From positions 124,949 through 188,948 of the forward strand of contig JASFLY010000003.1 of assembly GCA_050117845.1 (NCBI GenBank): a stretch of 64,000 nt of DNA, given 5' to 3'. Every line of letters begins with the position of its first letter. Within the stretch, counting starts at the first letter, position 1. Made by a program: the position numbers and the translations under genes. The stretch is from Candidatus Zixiibacteriota bacterium. Lineage in GTDB: Bacteria; RBG-13-66-14; B26-G2; WVWN01. The notes beneath the pieces are model-generated. The model saw only the letters and a program-made list of their open reading frames with translations. It was not told where the DNA came from and made no database searches. Below, one piece after another: positions 14,775-34,656 of this stretch.

Positions 14775-15680
14775 TTAACCGGATACCAAACCCGTCTCGC
14801 CGAGAATGACCTCGCCGTAAACCGGCACGGCGTCGAAATCCTCGGTCGTGAATTTATCCATTTGGGATTCGTGAACGAACAAACGGTTCATCGCGAACTT
14901 CAACATGACGGCCTCGACGGCCGGTAAGGCCACGCCGGCGGACTTCATCTGCCAGCTCACGATATCGGCCGCCGGCCCCATTAGATGGAAGCATCCGGCT
15001 TTCGATAACTTCACCTTGATCGCCTTGACGGCGATAGGCAGTCTCCGCTCGGACTCCACGACGACACAACCGTCGCCCTCCGAAACCCAAATGTCCGGGC
15101 ACAACGCGAATAACTCGTCTACCGGACCGGGGTTGGGACGTACCGCCCGGCCGCGGCCGTTTTTACCCCTAAGGGCCAGTTTTGAGCTCTCCAGGTATCC
15201 GTGTATGATGCAACAGTGACCTTTGTCGAGAGGTTCCCGTAAGAATTCCGGCTCCCCGTTCCACCCGTAACCTTCGACGAATATCGCAAGGTCGATGGGG
15301 TGAGCCATGACCTCGCGAACGTCGTAGAACTCTATCGAGAGCGAAGAAGCCTCCGGGAAACTCTCTTCCATCACCTCAGCCGCTTCCCCCGCAGCCGGCG
15401 GCGAGGGCGACGCTCGCAACATGCTTTCGACGAACCGGGCGGTAGCACCAGGCTCCCCAAAATTGGTCCGAACGGCCCGGAATTCCGGTATGTCCATCCG
15501 TTCGTGAACGTCGGGCCGGTTCCTCGGCGGTTCCTCGTGCAAGTCGAAGACTTCGCCGACAACGCCGTAGTGGCCGTTCAACCGGGCAAGCAAATTAAAA
15601 ACCCTAACGGCCTCGCCCGGAAGGGAAACGACCTGGTAATGTTTTCTTCGGAGAAAATCCGGGGTAAGGGCTTTTTCCAT
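14775..15680 (-). CDS. hypothetical protein, co-oriented directly downstream of the RT-like gene
   Basis: 301 aa; GGAG RBS ~8 nt upstream of ATG 15680; 81-nt gap from RT-like gene stop; no domain recognised. Confidence 0.55.
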   Translation of the reverse strand: MEKALTPDFLRRKHYQVVSLPGEAVRVFNLLARLNGHYGVVGEVFDLHEEPPRNRPDVHERMDIPEFRAVRTNFGEPGATARFVESMLRASPSPPAAGEAAEVMEESFPEASSLSIEFYDVREVMAHPIDLAIFVEGYGWNGEPEFLREPLDKGHCCIIHGYLESSKLALRGKNGRGRAVRPNPGPVDELFALCPDIWVSEGDGCVVVESERRLPIAVKAIKVKLSKAGCFHLMGPAADIVSWQMKSAGVALPAVEAVMLKFAMNRLFVHESQMDKFTTEDFDAVPVYGEVILGETGLVSG

Positions 15681-15761
15681 ACGACTTCACTCCGTCTCGA
15701 CGAACACCGTACGTTTAAACCAACGGCGGCGCGCCCGCAAGGCCGTCGGCCGGGAAGGCAC

Positions 15762-34200: not shown

Positions 34201-34656
34201 GAGGCCCTCAGCGCGACCGAAGCGAAGACCCGCCTCCTAGCCAACCAAATACCGGCGATTATTTGGACGACCGACGACGAACTCCGGATAACGTCCCTGC
34301 ACGGCGGCGGCCTGGCGTTTATCGAGACGCCGCCCGCGGAACTCCGGGGTAAAACGCTACCCGAGCTCTATGGCACCAACGAGGTCACGTCCACGGTCAT
34401 TGCGGCCCACCGGCAAGCGCTCCGGGGCGAAGTGGCGACTTACGACCAGGAAATCGGCTCTCGGACATTCCAGGCTACGGTGGAGCCGTGTAGGGACGGA
34501 GAGGGCCGCGTAGTCGGATGCGTCGGCGCGGCCCTCAACGGCCTGACGCTTTACGGCAAAATAAACGGTCCCGCCCGGACCGGCGGCGATCCCGGCGAGA
34601 AGTCAACGTCGCCGGAGTACCCGCCTCGACCCAAGCCGAGCTCGACGGGGTCCTAA
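25231..34656 (+). CDS. giant (~3141 aa) reverse transcriptase - PAS/GAF sensor-array fusion protein
   Basis: Start taken at ATG 25231 (GAGGAGG RBS 8 nt upstream) rather than TTG 25168; RT motifs in canonical order: NYCAVGDVTAYFENV, LPQGNDISLFLSNFYL, YFRYVDDICVF (YVDD at 26032-26043); then helical domain, then >=10 PAS units with DITERK(R/L)AEE-type linkers and ~5 GAF-like units; no kinase/GGDEF/EAL/HD/DNA-binding output. Confidence 0.85.
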   Translation: MDFCSADDLAAAWPYARRDAADNFVFDVIDYEDVKHNLPHIIRRLERELRTDQYKPAPLLSVDIPKRPYTIRPGAVVSLIDLIVLYALVRKIAPALDAKLSPGVFSYRWVPEGKKPKWSIFSESTQDECGIDEILPAAPFAPYPPFDEAAPAGWFRGWIEYHERAKDSAARYNYCAVGDVTAYFENVAVTSLFNRIGDLLGPEHSEALTRLRRFYEYWAWHPAGTTTRGEVLPQGNDISLFLSNFYLTKLDEAMAAEVQNDPRRYFRYVDDICVFTDTQEQAHHSLLTGDRVLRDLGLNLNTEKTGIVPTSRLFDRDVERWLEDMSPVTANAAENARDFFKNRFDADDVEKWERAYLRALTTLQRAGDCSVAPAALQVFLENPTYKLLVKNFDYLSFFAERFRFGDDVARRITEGTFNFPFHKHYLYRLAAYCRQNSPSLREQALEEARGDAEWYVRIAALYCLNTFNLSPDELDAVEELAGSEAHPQVARAALVVLRQRPADEVASAEDHFLFTTAPGQENLREYFFRLTTEEELARAVLERIRNQEVASRAFLNRLHQLDLLKGNPAVREEYGRILEQKIDECDPAWTRLYSRLRRIAELASVSALRVRKARKIARAQGHLQTLLRSSREAVLITGPGGDVQVWNDAVNKLLGYGRREVRGKDVTDILPSPGGFASADELTAYVAENGGWLVEEATLYERPDGALIDISTTYSVITDPITGEPVGLLILVRDATAEVRAARIEQVQIATEQTLADATVRLVSPEDLDAAIEHTLRETADVLNAQRATVFRFREGTLVLDVTHEWCAPGVPSTRDSGGKLDLGELPDVRERLHSERVLSISNLSTPSAGSQRVMKERGVKAALVVPFYISDEMTGLIACTDTTRPRDWAYGEANLLFAVTALISKALARREAEEEKLVSEVRYRAVVEDQTELICRWRPDGTLTFVNEAYGRYFGKSPGELVGRSFIHFISEEDRETVEAEFASLGPDKPSSTHEHRVTTPAGEVRWQQWTNRVIIDEHGAISEYQSVGRDITERKLAEEALDFERRQLLSIYDSVEEVVYVADPRTHEIIYANEYLKSLYGKDMVGGVCYREFQGLEAPCDFCTNGIILEQKGKAYRWEFHNEILDKSFLCTDRIIKWPDGRDARIEIAIDISDRKTAEEALRKSEEEFRALAEQSLQGVTLATEDRTIFANRAFYNITGYEPDEIIGLTPGEVATLIIRPEDRETVKKNFRRRMDGESAPSPYAVGILHKNGSTRWAELYCTIVDIGGPPANLTTLVDITERKRAEEAIRESEVKYRTLFENSPDALTILDTRAVISDLNRATEELTGYSREELLGRPFVEIPSLRAQKRARLRKLHSDLVAGREAEPYELEIVRRDGTRRWVNVTVAAIKKGSDLIGTQLIGRDVTERKLAEEKIKRRLEFEGVVARISSRLVAPADVDRAVNESLADIGRFLGAGRVPLFLLSRDGSEMSISHEWCAAGVKSLIGELQGEPTSGIPWWTDRLGGGEVLHIPDVSRMPPEAAPEQKILEGQGIKSILVLPVEIGGSFSGFVALDNVEGTGGWDVDDVELLRVMAADLGRAFERQRAESILRENEERYRDLVEGSHDLVQSVAPDARFLFVNRAWLRTMGYAESELPNLTLFDVIHPDYVGHCQELFQHVMRGETVSDISVKFVTKDGREIILDGTAGPRFMNGEVVSTQGFFHDVTERKRAEEKLKRHSEEIAAVSELAIELAGVDTSEEMFPLIARRLRELTGALAVLTTSYDYEADELAVNAVEADVSTLDKTNDILGAELSTIRFPFPIYSREALASEHVAVTTGIPHQAHAVIPKNACRVIEEAFGIGDVYILTFHFGGDMIGAAGIIMQRETTRPSVDTLEAAANTIATTLRSKLAEEALVASEREKTTILECVDDMVVFCNSEMETVWANPAAAAWHDMTPEEMVGRRCYEERYGRTDPCEDCAEVEALRTGEPREIETTSPDGRSWYNRSIPVTDDSGAVVGVVTTTQEVTARYHARETLKQRATNLAAINDLAVELASAPSADAIRRIAGDRLRTLGGALAAIVTSYDEEAGVFVVRHISAPGDVFTKANKILNGTVYDIRCPVDDDAYEEILARRVKPYEGVYDLALGAIPRKLATAIEKALGLGEIIAAGFRHGGRVLGGISVVMPEGRPAPDAEILENFANVVSSALVRQAADEWLVKSEREKSAILANMTGLVAYMKPNLEIVWANDAAADWAGLTPREMAGRYCYDVWYGRTKPCKRCHVVRTVESGEAQTFETDFRDGSVWHVQCNPVRNAAGEVVGIVETSTDISARKRAEESRRETEARYRALVDTMNDGFIAHDERGVITYVNDRLCEILGFPRENIEGRPMDDFLDRENAATLRERRRLKKPRAEAYELCWTGEGGRRVYTVVSPGTLPKTEGRSAGGYATIADITVRKRAEENLQRRSDDIVAANGLILELAAARTPAEAAEILCEGLKRLTEALAIALLKYDVNTRELVIEYVAAENDVKSESGKILGGELSSLRFPLDRAGADELVNRRVAATKGLPRNVYGGVPRKDVRAFEEALGLGEVYVLPLQHREGLMGTVAIVTRDENPPLWPGAVEAVVAAAAAVHERVEAAEKLRASEETAQVLLNAPANSAFLLDAEGTILAFNETTRCRTRLGAEDLRSASLWEILPPAVVDARKGQLEEVVRTGRPVHFEEKRPGSAFESYFHPIRGPHGVTNVALFSWPVTLRKEIEEKLAEPKKDFRPAAEASPVAALVLNHSGGISWVNKAALSLFGYAKKGQMKRLPLRELFHAEDEKEMERVMDLAAGSATTYAGFTALTVNGERRPTVARAAPVFEDGKRRGVRVLVDDVSERVRTAEALAAGVDPTELLSTLTSSYAVVADGKGAVTAVNTNTETRLCKPADDVIGTHFEFTVPRGTEESRKQAFEETLRSGKAVLFEDETTAATYENDLYPILDGEGNVSRVAFFSRDVTGSKATAEALSATEAKTRLLANQIPAIIWTTDDELRITSLHGGGLAFIETPPAELRGKTLPELYGTNEVTSTVIAAHRQALRGEVATYDQEIGSRTFQATVEPCRDGEGRVVGCVGAALNGLTLYGKINGPARTGGDPGEKSTSPEYPPRPKPSSTGS

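Follow-up and report, generated by a model that had tools for sequence, protein, structure and literature searches.

A 64,000-nt chromosomal stretch (the window) from an uncultured member of the Zixibacteria (GCA_050117845.1, contig JASFLY010000003.1) contains a two-module regulatory system built around reverse transcriptases (RTs) of the UG21 group, class 1 of the UG/Abi RTs. The locus spans positions 14775–34656 (Table 1). Module 1, on the minus strand, reads as a tightly gated sigma-54 operon in the order activator, palindromic site, −24/−12 promoter, peptide, GC hairpin, dead RT, gasdermin homologue and terminator. Module 2, on the plus strand, consists of a WYL regulator followed by a giant protein in which an intact RT is fused to PAS and GAF domains (RT-PAS). 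Our best reading, to which we give a probability of roughly 0.45, is that the locus encodes a class 1 RT system which is inducible, is gated by sensors, has a pseudo-RT as partner and kills the cell through an effector; it probably serves a stress or phage response. The regulatory design, a sensor-fused RT beside a switched operon for peptide, dead RT and gasdermin, recurs in related genomes, and no description of it for a bacterial RT was found in the literature searched.

Table 1. Features of the locus, numbered from the first nucleotide of the window
Feature	Position	Strand	Basis
Intrinsic terminator closing the sigma-54 operon, GCCGAGGA-cggaa-GTCCTCGGC then TTTT	14580–14605	−	Sequence reading
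Bacterial gasdermin homologue, 301 aa	14775–15680	−	Final gene in the sigma-54 operon, 81 nt downstream of the pseudo-RT; PADLOC bGSDM E 2.8e-13, residues 8–235
Catalytically dead UG21 RT paralogue (pseudo-RT, type A'), 575 aa	15762–17489	−	35% identity, E 2e-99, over ~600 aa of the giant's RT region (residues 26–620)
GC-rich hairpin	17528–17568	−	Between peptide stop codon and pseudo-RT start codon (RNA folds)
Peptide gene, 50 aa	17585–17737	−	Sec-type signal sequence, AxA cleavage site, mature proline-rich part of ~22 aa (SDVQPPIIPPPQSPPPDGEHDG)
Sigma-54 (−24/−12) promoter TGGCACGGGAATTGC	17771–17785	−	Sole strict match in 64 kb; 0.03 expected by chance
Perfect palindrome CGCCAATTTTGGCG, presumed activator-binding site (UAS)	17930–17943	.	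~150 nt upstream of the promoter
Sensor activator, 1659 aa	17979–22958	−	Ser/Thr kinase (Pkinase), STAND NTPase (AAA_16), TPR, GAF, sigma-54 AAA+ domain (Sigma54_activat), HTH_8 (Pfam)
Divergent promoter region of the activator and WYL genes	22959–23836 (878 bp)	.	GC 0.33–0.43 at both ends, 0.52–0.58 in the middle
HTH_11-WYL-WCX transcription regulator, 330 aa	23837–24829	+	Pfam WYL 1.2e-24, WCX 4.8e-13; PADLOC WYL 1.6e-55
RT-PAS giant ORF	25168–34656	+	Probable start ATG 25231 (3141 aa)
Hairpin and U-run, possible attenuator	25182–25211	+	Directly before the RT-PAS Shine-Dalgarno; energy as for shuffled sequence (z 0.01)
Intact UG21 class 1 RT domain and C-terminal alpha-helical repeat domain	25231–27087	+	RVT_1; PADLOC RT_UG21 3.9e-72
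C-terminal sensor array	27088–34656	+	~17 PAS and 3–4 GAF (Pfam on overlapping pieces)

The initial annotation had described this interval as a multi-gene RT-based regulatory or defence locus, free of housekeeping genes. All seven elements that it listed were recovered in place, and ORF and domain scans found no housekeeping gene in the interval. The genes also occur together elsewhere. The core of activator, binding site, sigma-54 promoter, peptide and RT is repeated with fixed spacing in 13 further loci, and a WYL gene lies upstream of RT-PAS in four lineages.

In addition to the window, 10 stand-alone-RT loci have an equivalent of the Module 1 promoter 284–306 nt upstream of the RT start, and three RT-PAS loci have one 478–732 nt upstream. 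The presumed UAS is accompanied by a second, weaker copy of the palindrome at 17853–17866, and palindromes of the GCCAAT(A/T)TTGGC type occur at matching distances in 12 other loci. CCGCCAATTTTGGCGG is the presumed target of the activator's HTH domain; the perfect palindrome may double as the activator gene's terminator hairpin. The activator has the full domain set named in the initial annotation and retains the kinase motifs VAIK, HGDVKPGN and DFG as well as a Walker A motif. Its sigma-54 contact loop is GTATGV, not GAFTGA, as in all nine family members checked, which counts against our best reading. The terminator at the far end of the operon overlaps a sub-threshold Rfam hairpin match at 14585–14615.

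The RT encoded by this operon is a degenerate relative of the RT in the giant, as had been proposed. RT_UG21 was the top PADLOC model for both (5.8e-23 for the pseudo-RT), placing them in one fold and family. In the pseudo-RT, motif B has changed from PQGN to WTADG, motif C from YVDD to FRDK, and motif D is lost; the protein clusters with three others (L014, L031 and L035) that are dead as well. Judged by alignment, the activator-linked RTs of about 620 aa are systematically degenerate at catalytic residues: the motif A Asp and RPG are lost in all and the motif D Lys usually, and the subclade of the window's pseudo-RT additionally lacks PQGN and YVDD. The 301-aa gene that follows was present as annotated, but its label as hypothetical gives way to that of a bacterial gasdermin homologue. 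Besides the PADLOC match, phmmer aligned it over its full length with the solved gasdermin 7N51 (E 8e-4), and a weak Bact_GSDM match stands in the precomputed Pfam record of the database. Our own Pfam scan returned no match, and a single-sequence AF2 model was uninformative (pLDDT 33). Among the loci compared, the gasdermin gene was found in the window's lineage only, a point against the best reading.

In the giant, every catalytic motif of the RT is intact in the alignment. The AF2 model of this region (pLDDT 83.9) is all-helical from residue 316, and its top full-length Foldseek matches were DRT6, AbiK, AbiA and UG15/DRT4. Internal repeats divide part of the sensor array into tandem modules of ~300 aa, each with GAF-like and Cys-rich PAS sequences. 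Pfam searches on overlapping pieces found no output domain other than the RT; the RT shares the polypeptide with about 20 PAS/GAF sensor domains only and is therefore the output domain of a signalling protein. Such fusions recur at 1177–3141 aa, the relatives of the window's protein (P0018, P0019, P0020, P0023 and L018) having 1177–3053 aa. WYL orthologues with 63–66% identity lie upstream of RT-PAS in L008 and L018, and another is present on the P0018 contig. The 880-bp AT-rich island reported between activator and WYL genes is an intergenic region that is AT-rich at its two ends only. It is an ordinary divergent promoter region, with sigma-70-like sites at 23063–23036 (minus strand) and 23682–23711 (plus strand), and a search of it for a conserved ORF or repeat found none.

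We propose the following mechanism for the sensor-gated RT system. The STAND-TPR-GAF part of the activator would sense a cue, either a molecule arising from infection or stress or the peptide after its re-import. The cue-bound activator would oligomerise and open the sigma-54 promoter, so that pseudo-RT and gasdermin are made in a burst. The pseudo-RT might then join or remodel an oligomeric RT-PAS enzyme. As AbiK, DRT3b and further class 1 enzymes suggest, this enzyme would synthesise DNA without a template, primed by protein, whenever the PAS/GAF array allows it. Untemplated synthesis by class 1 enzymes and a hexameric DRT3b are described in PMC13174585. The WYL regulators DriD and PafBC are activated by single-stranded DNA (PMC9186387, PMC11804915), and by this analogy the WYL protein of the locus may read out single-stranded DNA produced by RT-PAS. 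Toxicity of the DNA product and gasdermin pores together could arrest growth or kill the cell, most likely in a stress response or in abortive infection.

Signal transduction outside defence is a serious rival, possible although we consider it unlikely. RT-PAS would be a housekeeping environmental sensor (of redox, metals or small molecules), and its polymerase output would control physiological processes such as envelope or polysaccharide production or development. The peptide would be a cell-cell or autocrine signal read by the activator's TPR in the manner of RRNPP systems, and the gasdermin a late, lineage-specific addition. The gene order of RT-PAS with a GT4/AsnB/Wzy polysaccharide cluster is stable in four lineages across 44–67% RT identity, and the RT diverges about as fast as its neighbours. 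Such synteny is atypical of defence islands; it counts against our best reading and weakens the defence half of the original regulatory-or-defence proposal. Our search for a phage, plasmid or defence-island context of the activator-linked clade found none, again to the detriment of the best reading. Signalling is further favoured by the extreme richness in sensor domains, by the adjacency of a TPR receptor and a self-controlled gene for a small secreted peptide, which is the architecture of peptide quorum sensing, and by the inconclusive defence association of UG21 in the published analysis (PMC9226505). However, the characterised members of class 1 UG/Abi are all abortive-infection or defence enzymes (PMC9226505). 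The gasdermin recruited into the operon, the HTH-WYL-WCX regulator of defence-locus type, and the sister-clade RTs, some beside a type I restriction-modification system and others fused to HNH and a weak TRADD-N-like domain, are hallmarks of conflict systems. Rapid turnover of architecture also argues against a housekeeping sensor: the activator, peptide and WYL genes come and go in evolution, and the extent of the sensor array differs among proteins of 1177–3141 aa.

The pairing of the modules bears on a second, improbable alternative, that they are functionally independent neighbours through chance or local rearrangement, the dead RT being a decaying or independent paralogue and not a partner of the active one. 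The 20 kb do not form the single locus first proposed. The window activator is 55–56% identical to activators of stand-alone cassettes and 42% identical to the activator preceding orthologous RT-PAS genes, and the two modules are therefore of different ancestry. Neither a sigma-54 promoter nor a UAS was found in 24830–25230, so that the window's RT-PAS has lost the elements that join the modules elsewhere, and one Zixibacteria MAG has a stand-alone cassette only; pairing of the RT types may therefore not be obligatory. Both observations count against the best reading. In related genomes, the same kind of activator and promoter drives RT-PAS directly: in L008 and L015, RT-PAS follows activator, sigma-54 promoter and peptide. 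A second genome, GCA_004196295.1, repeats the suggested pairing of active and inactive RTs, with an intact RT-PAS (L018) and an activator-peptide-RT cassette with a degenerate 620-aa paralogue (L001), on different contigs. The separate contigs suit independence, as do the different ancestry of the modules, the lost promoter elements of the window's RT-PAS and the cassette-only MAG, but the L018 RT-PAS keeps two UAS copies and a sigma-54 promoter. It has no adjacent activator gene and would need an activator encoded elsewhere; the activator of the cassette in that genome is associated with the same palindrome. Two further findings oppose independence. Both RT types form one monophyletic activator-associated clade in the tree, and the degenerate RTs are full-length, keep the helical domain and are conserved over many loci, so they are under selection and not decaying.

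The small ORF fits its earlier description, with the promoter followed by a Shine-Dalgarno and then the signal sequence and proline-rich tail. Orthologues occupy the equivalent position in 11 other loci, and dN/dS values of 0.13–0.5 indicate purifying selection at the protein level. A hairpin of differing sequence lies at the matching position in L001, L004, L012, L025 and L014 (z down to −5.25). It is very unlikely that the ORF is a regulatory leader and not a signal or effector. Such a leader would be an arrest peptide of the SecM, MifM or VemP kind that monitors secretion or translation, and its translation status would set the amount of RT together with the hairpin. The N-terminal signal sequence and C-terminal PPP/PPPP runs common to all loci would suit this role, as would the conserved position of the hairpin between peptide and RT and, in L001, the RT Shine-Dalgarno within the 3' arm of a second stem. 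But the hairpin begins 15–25 nt past the stop codon and ~40 nt past the last PPP, outside the footprint of a proline-stalled ribosome, and the RT Shine-Dalgarno lies outside the main hairpin in most loci. Conservation also extends to the AxA cleavage site and to non-proline residues of the mature part (an acidic residue, LPP and a C-terminal GxG[DG]).

A known mobile or templated retroelement (retron, diversity-generating retroelement [DGR] or group II intron) is suggested by the RVT_1 matches and by a generic resemblance of the palm domain to the RTs of group II introns and retrons, but can be dismissed as extremely improbable: the top profile match is to UG21 rather than to any retron, DGR or intron model, Rfam returned no match to retron msr/msd, group II introns or other RNAs, there is no TR/VR-type repeat (the sole long repeat is the internal domain duplication), sequence conservation among orthologues does not extend upstream of the RT, and helical repeats form the C-terminus in place of a maturase or endonuclease domain.

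To our knowledge, UG21 has no reported activity and no reported defence phenotype. The group belongs to class 1 UG/Abi and has a HEAT-like C-terminus (Mestre et al., 2022; PMC9226505). Its solved relatives include AbiK, AbiA, Abi-P2, DRT4/UG15 and DRT6, and the RTs of the locus share with them an RT palm followed by a HEAT-like alpha-helical repeat domain; the modelled likeness of the giant's RT to DRT6, AbiK, AbiA and UG15 extends over the full length. The degenerate catalytic motifs of the activator-linked 620-aa subclade set it apart from the group. The literature searched held no description of a UG21 or other UG/Abi RT with a PAS/GAF fusion, control by sigma-54 and an activator, or a co-transcribed peptide. 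A parallel for two RT-family proteins proposed to cooperate, one of them class 1, is DRT3 (Drt3a/UG3, Drt3b/UG8 and an ncRNA; PMC13174585), which pairs a class 2 with a class 1 RT, both active, in a single operon with an ncRNA template. The RTs described here are both UG21 paralogues, one of them dead. Each has a transcription unit of its own, the two units being divergent, and in the second genome the two RT types lie on different contigs. Unlike in DRT3, no ncRNA was detectable at the locus by Rfam or by comparison of the regions upstream of the RTs.

The gasdermin homologue resembles the proteins of bGSDM defence operons (7N51, 8SL0) in its alignment and its profile matches. Known bGSDMs are activated by an adjacent protease, which removes a short C-terminal peptide. 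ORF and domain scans of the window found no protease gene close to the homologue, which weighs against the best reading; the protein also has ~40 extra C-terminal residues and no N-terminal cysteine, and its control appears to be transcriptional, via sigma-54. RRNPP systems (AimR-AimP, PlcR-PapR) share with Module 1 the succession of a TPR-domain receptor-regulator, an ORF of ~50 aa that has a signal sequence and whose C-terminal part is conserved, and a regulated gene. They belong to Firmicutes and their phages and use a simple HTH acting on sigma-70 promoters, whereas the receptor here is a sigma-54 activator in a host of a different phylum, the peptide is encoded inside the regulated operon and its re-import is putative. 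The WYL protein shares its HTH-WYL-WCX architecture, and its place directly upstream of a presumed target gene, with BrxR/CapW of defence systems and with DriD/PafBC. The activator combines features of MalT-type STAND activators (AAA_16 and MalT-like TPR) with those of sigma-54 enhancer-binding proteins of the RtcR, PspF and NtrC types (GAF, Sigma54_activat and HTH_8, with a palindrome upstream of a −24/−12 promoter), and RtcR/PspF-type PADLOC models match its AAA+-HTH part. It differs from canonical sigma-54 activators, with their GAFTGA loop, in the invariable GTATGV, and from both families in joining an N-terminal Ser/Thr kinase, a STAND NTPase and a sigma-54 AAA+ domain in one 1659-aa protein, whose target operon encodes an RT-family protein.

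The initial annotation's inventory of genes for 14775-34656 is borne out, with five large genes and one small gene in this region of a Candidatus Zixiibacteriota MAG. Ordinary chromosomal genes flank the locus. Those on one flank encode a DUF4388 protein, a small GTPase and an aminotransferase; the opposite flank holds a GT4/AsnB polysaccharide cluster. The 878 bp separating the two gene sets (22959-23836) had been described as an AT-rich island; the composition is AT-rich at both ends of the segment but not elsewhere within it. Sigma-70-like promoters face in both directions here, and the segment is therefore a divergent promoter region. 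On the minus strand, the 81-nt gap between the pseudo-RT and gasdermin genes, together with a clean terminator, defines a transcription unit of promoter, peptide, pseudo-RT and gasdermin. On the plus strand, a WYL regulator gene precedes the RT-PAS gene, whose probable start is fronted by a GAGGAGG Shine-Dalgarno sequence and agrees with the 3141-aa database protein. Searches for repeats and operators in the intergenic regions gave short matches at chance level only, and an Rfam scan of 14-35.5 kb (E ≤ 1) gave only two sub-threshold matches. When the regions 5' of four orthologous RT-PAS genes were aligned, no conserved block indicative of a ncRNA was seen.

Features of the locus, in window coordinates
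Feature	Position	Strand	Details
Intrinsic terminator	14580-14605		clean; 3' of gasdermin gene
Gasdermin-homologue ORF	14775-15680	-	301 aa
Pseudo-RT ORF	15762-17489	-	575 aa
Peptide ORF	17585-17737	-	50 aa, MRAVRKLTLTSIIVVFLLSILAPSIAAASDVQPPIIPPPQSPPPDGEHDG; Shine-Dalgarno between promoter and ORF
Sigma-54 promoter	17771-17785	-	TGGCACGGGAATTGC; TGGCAC-N5-TTGC
Palindrome, perfect	17930-17943		first after activator gene in minus-strand order; CGCCAATTTTGGCG
Activator ORF	17979-22958	-	1659 aa; Pkinase, AAA_16, TPR/TPR_MalT, GAF, Sigma54_activat, AAA_lid_14, HTH_8 (Pfam)
WYL regulator ORF	23837-24829	+	330 aa; HTH_11, WYL, WCX (Pfam)
RT-PAS ORF	25168-34656	+	probable start ATG 25231

Several neighbouring genes were recorded. 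The DUF4388 protein and a small Ras/Arf-like GTPase form an MglA-like pair (13110-14501, +) that is convergent with the gasdermin gene and has the terminator region in common with it. Adjacent V4R-domain proteins of 192 and 203 aa, followed by a class V aminotransferase, occupy 9808-12266 (+). Farther away, a sensor-rich regulator of 787 aa (3873-6236, +) has an N-terminal HTH_17 domain, then four PAS and one GAF; its PAS/GAF part is 25-27% identical to that of the giant RT-PAS protein. A second sigma-54 activator, of ordinary size (463 aa; 60607-61998, -), shares 42% identity with the AAA+-HTH part of the giant one. The large polysaccharide cluster (34720-~54300, -) encodes GT4 glycosyltransferases and an AsnB-type asparagine synthase. 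It converges with the RT-PAS gene, and synteny is seen in three comparison loci (L008, L015 and L018). It contains three ORFs of exactly 636 aa (37110-39020, 47072-48982 and 52421-54331), the first of which is AsnB-like in a domain scan of that ORF.

Both RTs are UG21/class 1 members by profile, motifs and fold. RT_UG21 was the best PADLOC model for the RT domain of the giant (3.9e-72) and for the 575-aa paralogue (5.8e-23), with UG32 and UG23 as runners-up, and the paralogue is 35% identical to residues 26-620 of the giant (E 2e-99). UG21 has been placed in UG/Abi class 1, with a C-terminal HEAT-like helical repeat domain (Mestre et al., PMC9226505). An AF2 model of giant residues 1-619, built on a 17-sequence alignment (pLDDT 83.9), shows an RT palm and, C-terminal to it, an all-helical domain (residues 316-618, pLDDT ~90). 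Its best full-length Foldseek matches were hexameric DRT6, AbiK, AbiA and UG15/DRT4. The catalytic motifs of the giant are intact (GDVTAYFENV, LPQGN, YVDD and TEKT); those of the paralogue are broken, with WTADG, FRDK at the position of YVDD, and motif D gone. Class 1 enzymes have been described as polymerases that work without a template, and DRT3b as hexameric (PMC13174585). From class membership alone, we infer that the giant RT may carry out protein-primed, template-independent DNA synthesis.

The remainder of the giant is sensory. Pfam scanning in ten overlapping pieces gave RVT_1, a weak HEAT_2 match (3.5e-4), then ~17 PAS and 3-4 GAF domains up to the C-terminus, and no kinase, cyclase or other output domain. 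The total length of RT-PAS orthologues varies with the sensor array (1177, 1195, 1745, 1951, 3053 [L018, 9992-19153] and 3141 aa), which suggests rapid expansion of the array by internal duplication. In the window, the array (27088-34656) includes tandem modules of ~300 aa, mutually ~35% identical, that combine a GAF-like domain with a PAS domain bearing a conserved C...PC..C cysteine motif. It possibly senses metal or redox state.

For comparison, 42 loci were collected by word-indexed searching, an exhaustive HMMER run, look-up of contigs, and scanning of GTDB genomes and JGI metagenomes (the scan of GTDB species representatives returned two loci), and these were analyzed by tblastn and pattern searches. 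A neighbour-joining tree divided the RTs into three classes: A (with a subclade A'), B and C. Type B comprises the RT-PAS/GAF proteins: the window giant, L018 (3053 aa), P0018 (1745), P0019/L008 (1951), P0020/L015 (1177), P0023 (1195) and L019. Their domain order is uniform: the RT and the helical domain are followed by PAS, GAF, PAS and further such domains, and no other domain type occurs. Type A RTs are ~620 aa and have no sensor domains (L001, L003, L004, L012, L020, L025, L041 and L038). The A' subclade unites the 575-aa protein of the window with those of L014, L031, L035, L036, L039 and L040, at 45-59% identity. Type C RTs stand alone, with the activator not nearby. One of these, in a Candidatus Atribacteria MAG (L011, 727-7679), lies immediately 3' of hsdR and a fused hsdM-S gene, which make up a type I restriction-modification system. 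Another stand-alone UG21 relative, P0003 (797 aa), has an N-terminal HNH nuclease and a weak TRADD-like_N region; the second part of that extension is matched by the N-terminal extension of P0024 (732 aa), also a stand-alone relative. Such extensions hint at a conflict-system role of the sister clade. Types A, A' and B group together in a single clade. The paraphyly of the PAS-fused forms within it suggests that loss of the sensor array gave rise to type A. This activator-linked clade is chromosomally syntenic, and no close relative of it was found in phage and plasmid collections.

Motif comparison revealed a graded loss of catalytic residues. Types B and C and the outgroups retain PK..S(V/I)RPG, xD(I/V)TAYFEN, PQGN, Y(V/M)DD and LNxQxxKT. 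In type A, RPG is gone (AKSGAL), the motif A Asp is replaced by Glu (Gly in L012) and the motif D Lys is usually missing, with (Y/H/F)(V/A)DD still present. Type A' additionally has neither PQGN nor YVDD (FRDK, YFRD, YFQD or YLRD). Since the motif A Asp belongs to the triad of metal-binding carboxylates in polymerases, type A RTs are probably inactive and type A' RTs certainly so, judged from these motifs. They are full-length, conserved across many loci and retain the helical domain; they are maintained pseudo-enzymes, not decaying genes.

The pseudo-RT belongs to an operon with the elements of sigma-54 control. From the activator gene to the 575-aa gene, the minus strand carries in order a palindrome, a promoter, a Shine-Dalgarno sequence and the 50-aa ORF. 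The promoter is the sole strict sigma-54 match in the 64-kb window, where 0.03 would be expected by chance. The activator has strong matches to Sigma54_activat (PF00158, 6.8e-62) and HTH_8 (1.4e-12) and also contains AAA_lid_14, TPR_12 and TPR_MalT; the presumed target sequence of its HTH domain is CCGCCAATTTTGGCGG. Its sigma-54 contact loop, ESELFGIEKGTATGV, reads GTATGV, not the canonical GAFTGA. The same conserved, non-canonical loop was found in 9/9 family activators checked (the window protein, around residue 1440, and those of L001, L004, L008, L012, L015, L020, L025 and L041), all of which retain the kinase and Walker motifs. A canonical -24/-12 promoter follows each activator bearing GTATGV.

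The same regulatory layout was found in 13 loci besides the window, with palindrome and promoter at fixed distances. The core order is gene for a kinase-STAND-TPR-GAF-sigma54 activator (1660-1685 aa), one or two GCCAAT(A/T)TTGGC palindromes ~160 and 80 nt 5' of the promoter, promoter, 48-50-aa ORF, GC hairpin and RT; in type A loci the promoter (TGGCAY-N5-TTGC) is 284-306 nt 5' of the RT start. L018 has no adjacent activator gene, and the L014 contig ends too near the RT to show one. The peptides share a basic N-terminus, a hydrophobic core and an AxA signal-peptidase site, with a mature part of ~21 aa (consensus [DE]xLPPxIPPPPxxPPPGxG[DG]). Their pairwise dN/dS of 0.13-0.5 shows selection at the protein level, and the first gene of the operon encodes a real, conserved peptide of secreted type. 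The hairpin between peptide and RT (10-20 bp, z-scores down to -5.25) is conserved in position, and its sequence differs among loci; one of six spacer hairpins folds no better than shuffled sequence, as does the hairpin before the RT-PAS gene of the window. A covariation check of this spacer found a hairpin in each locus, the five sequences being poorly aligned and too few for proof.

Comparison of type B loci indicates how the arrangement in the window may have arisen. In L008 and L015, the regulatory core lies directly before the RT-PAS gene, so the core serves both RT types. WYL orthologues occur 5' of RT-PAS in L008, L018 and the P0018 contig, and the WYL and RT-PAS genes and the downstream glycosyltransferase and AsnB genes of the window are collinear with those of L008 and L018 (~62-67% identity). 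The window activator, however, shares 55-56% identity with type A activators but no more than 42% with that of L008. The order in L008 is WYL, activator, promoter-peptide and RT-PAS. L018 has WYL, then at 9103-9424 two copies of the upstream palindrome, a sigma-54 promoter and a 31-aa peptide remnant consisting of the signal sequence only, and then RT-PAS. The window has WYL, a 400-nt spacer containing neither palindrome nor sigma-54 promoter, and RT-PAS, with a complete type A cassette adjoining on the opposite strand. The L018 layout looks like an intermediate between the other two. Assembly GCA_004196295.1 contains both L018 (SDBS01000429) and a type A cassette, L001 (SDBS01000171), so two genomes carry both RT types. 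To work, the L018 promoter would need an activator from another place in the genome, and the palindrome of the cassette activator in that assembly is the same. A further hint of pairing is that one metagenome contained fragments of both type B (L019) and type A' (L035). One Zixibacteria MAG shows the cassette only, and pairing may thus not be obligatory.

By sequence profile, the last gene of the operon encodes a gasdermin homologue. The 301-aa protein matched PADLOC bGSDM (E 2.8e-13), has a weak Bact_GSDM match in its precomputed database record, and in phmmer its residues 9-258 aligned to positions 11-254 of 7N51, a gasdermin of solved structure (E 8e-4). Our own Pfam scan of it gave no match, and the AF2 model was unusable (pLDDT 33) because only an identical homologue exists and the prediction was from a single sequence; the assignment is consequently one of sequence profiles. 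Canonical gasdermin operons include a protease. No protease domain was found in the genes between 9.8 and 40 kb, and the operon is therefore not of the canonical type.

Other genes occupy the position behind the RT elsewhere. At five loci, a family of ~350-aa proteins with an Arg-rich N-terminus, one transmembrane segment and no Pfam match is encoded 230-560 nt 3' of type A/A' RT genes (L012 12349-13410 and 14378-15544; L020 11773-12807 and 15042-16172; L036 1339-2391; L039 906-1985; L005 2241-2672), often followed by a secreted-protein gene. The window's cassette has no copy beside it, and the gasdermin gene occupies that position. A 160-aa secreted protein is encoded behind the type A RT in L001 and L003; its window homologue (2360-2869, -; 47% identical) is 12 kb from the cassette, and this neighbour is thus probably not part of the system.

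The locus thus combines two parts. One is an apparent sigma-54 operon that has its own activator and putative binding site and whose cargo is a dead RT together with a gasdermin homologue; the other is an intact class 1 RT, preceded by a WYL regulator and fused to sensor domains only. We favor an inducible defence or stress-death system, at a probability of roughly 0.45; the published analysis of UG21 found its defence association inconclusive (PMC9226505). In such a system, a ligand would cause STAND oligomerisation and assembly of the sigma-54 AAA+ ring, and the operon would fire. The pseudo-RT might then enter an oligomeric RT-PAS enzyme, a step proposed because class 1 RTs are oligomers (PMC13174585; Foldseek matches). 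RT-PAS would make untemplated DNA when the PAS/GAF array permits, and the WYL regulator may detect that ssDNA by analogy with DriD and PafBC, which sense ssDNA (PMC9186387, PMC11804915). Cells would stop growing or die, gasdermin acting as an executioner specific to this lineage.

A signalling role outside defence would fit the stable gene order by a polysaccharide cluster, the absence from phages and plasmids and the RRNPP-like receptor and peptide layout; the sister-clade RT beside a restriction-modification system and the existence of an HNH fusion count against it, and we consider it a serious rival, though less probable than the defence reading. We give smaller weight to the proposals that the minus-strand operon and the WYL-RT-PAS pair are independent neighbours and that the small ORF is a leader or arrest peptide. 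A classical retroelement (retron, DGR or group II intron) is excluded by the UG21 best profile, the lack of Rfam matches above noise and of a conserved 5' block, and the absence of DGR-type (TR/VR) repeats.

A more specific and quite improbable proposal is that the RT is the output domain of a signalling protein, as GGDEF is elsewhere. The PAS/GAF array would gate untemplated DNA synthesis; an activator built like a pattern-recognition receptor (kinase-STAND-TPR-GAF) and a secreted proline-rich peptide would determine how much of an enzyme-switching pseudo-RT subunit is made; and the WYL protein would read the ssDNA. Regulated DNA synthesis would then serve inside the cell as a signal or effector, within a circuit that communicates by peptide.

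UG/Abi RTs are now known for unusual DNA products (untemplated, protein-templated and gene-creating). This locus and its relatives are a natural example of an RT control layer readable from the genome: a sigma-54 promoter with an identifiable activator and presumed site, a co-transcribed peptide of secreted type, a WYL regulator and as many as ~20 PAS/GAF domains on the polymerase, plus a conserved clade of dead RTs. If these parts act together, they would demonstrate that RT activity can be a classical signal-transduction output, pseudo-RTs can be regulatory subunits, and a gasdermin can be deployed by transcriptional gating and not by a dedicated protease.

Our literature searches turned up no relevant account of RTs under sigma-54/activator control, of RTs fused to PAS domains or of a link between gasdermins and RTs, and neither of the two papers that classify UG/Abi RTs mentions PAS, GAF or sigma factors. 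Sigma-54 activator control, a co-transcribed secreted peptide, a PAS/GAF-polymerase fusion, a pseudo-RT clade and a protease-less gasdermin in a UG21 system are thus not described in the literature found. The dual RT of DRT3 pairs a class 1 with a class 2 enzyme, both active and in one operon, and has an ncRNA template. Here, in contrast, both RTs are UG21, one is dead, the units are divergent, no Rfam match rises above noise and the regions 5' of the RT are not conserved among orthologues; judged by these features, the system is not of the DRT3 type. RRNPP systems couple a TPR receptor-regulator to an adjacent small secreted pro-peptide gene, which the activator and the 50-aa peptide resemble in architecture only. 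The WYL protein has the N-terminal HTH, WYL and WCX domains of known WYL regulators, and its gene likewise lies next to the presumptive target. Apart from the contact loop, which is conserved but non-canonical, the hallmarks of a sigma-54/enhancer-binding-protein regulon (a Sigma54_activat AAA+ domain with C-terminal HTH, a -24 GG/-12 GC promoter and upstream inverted repeats) are present.
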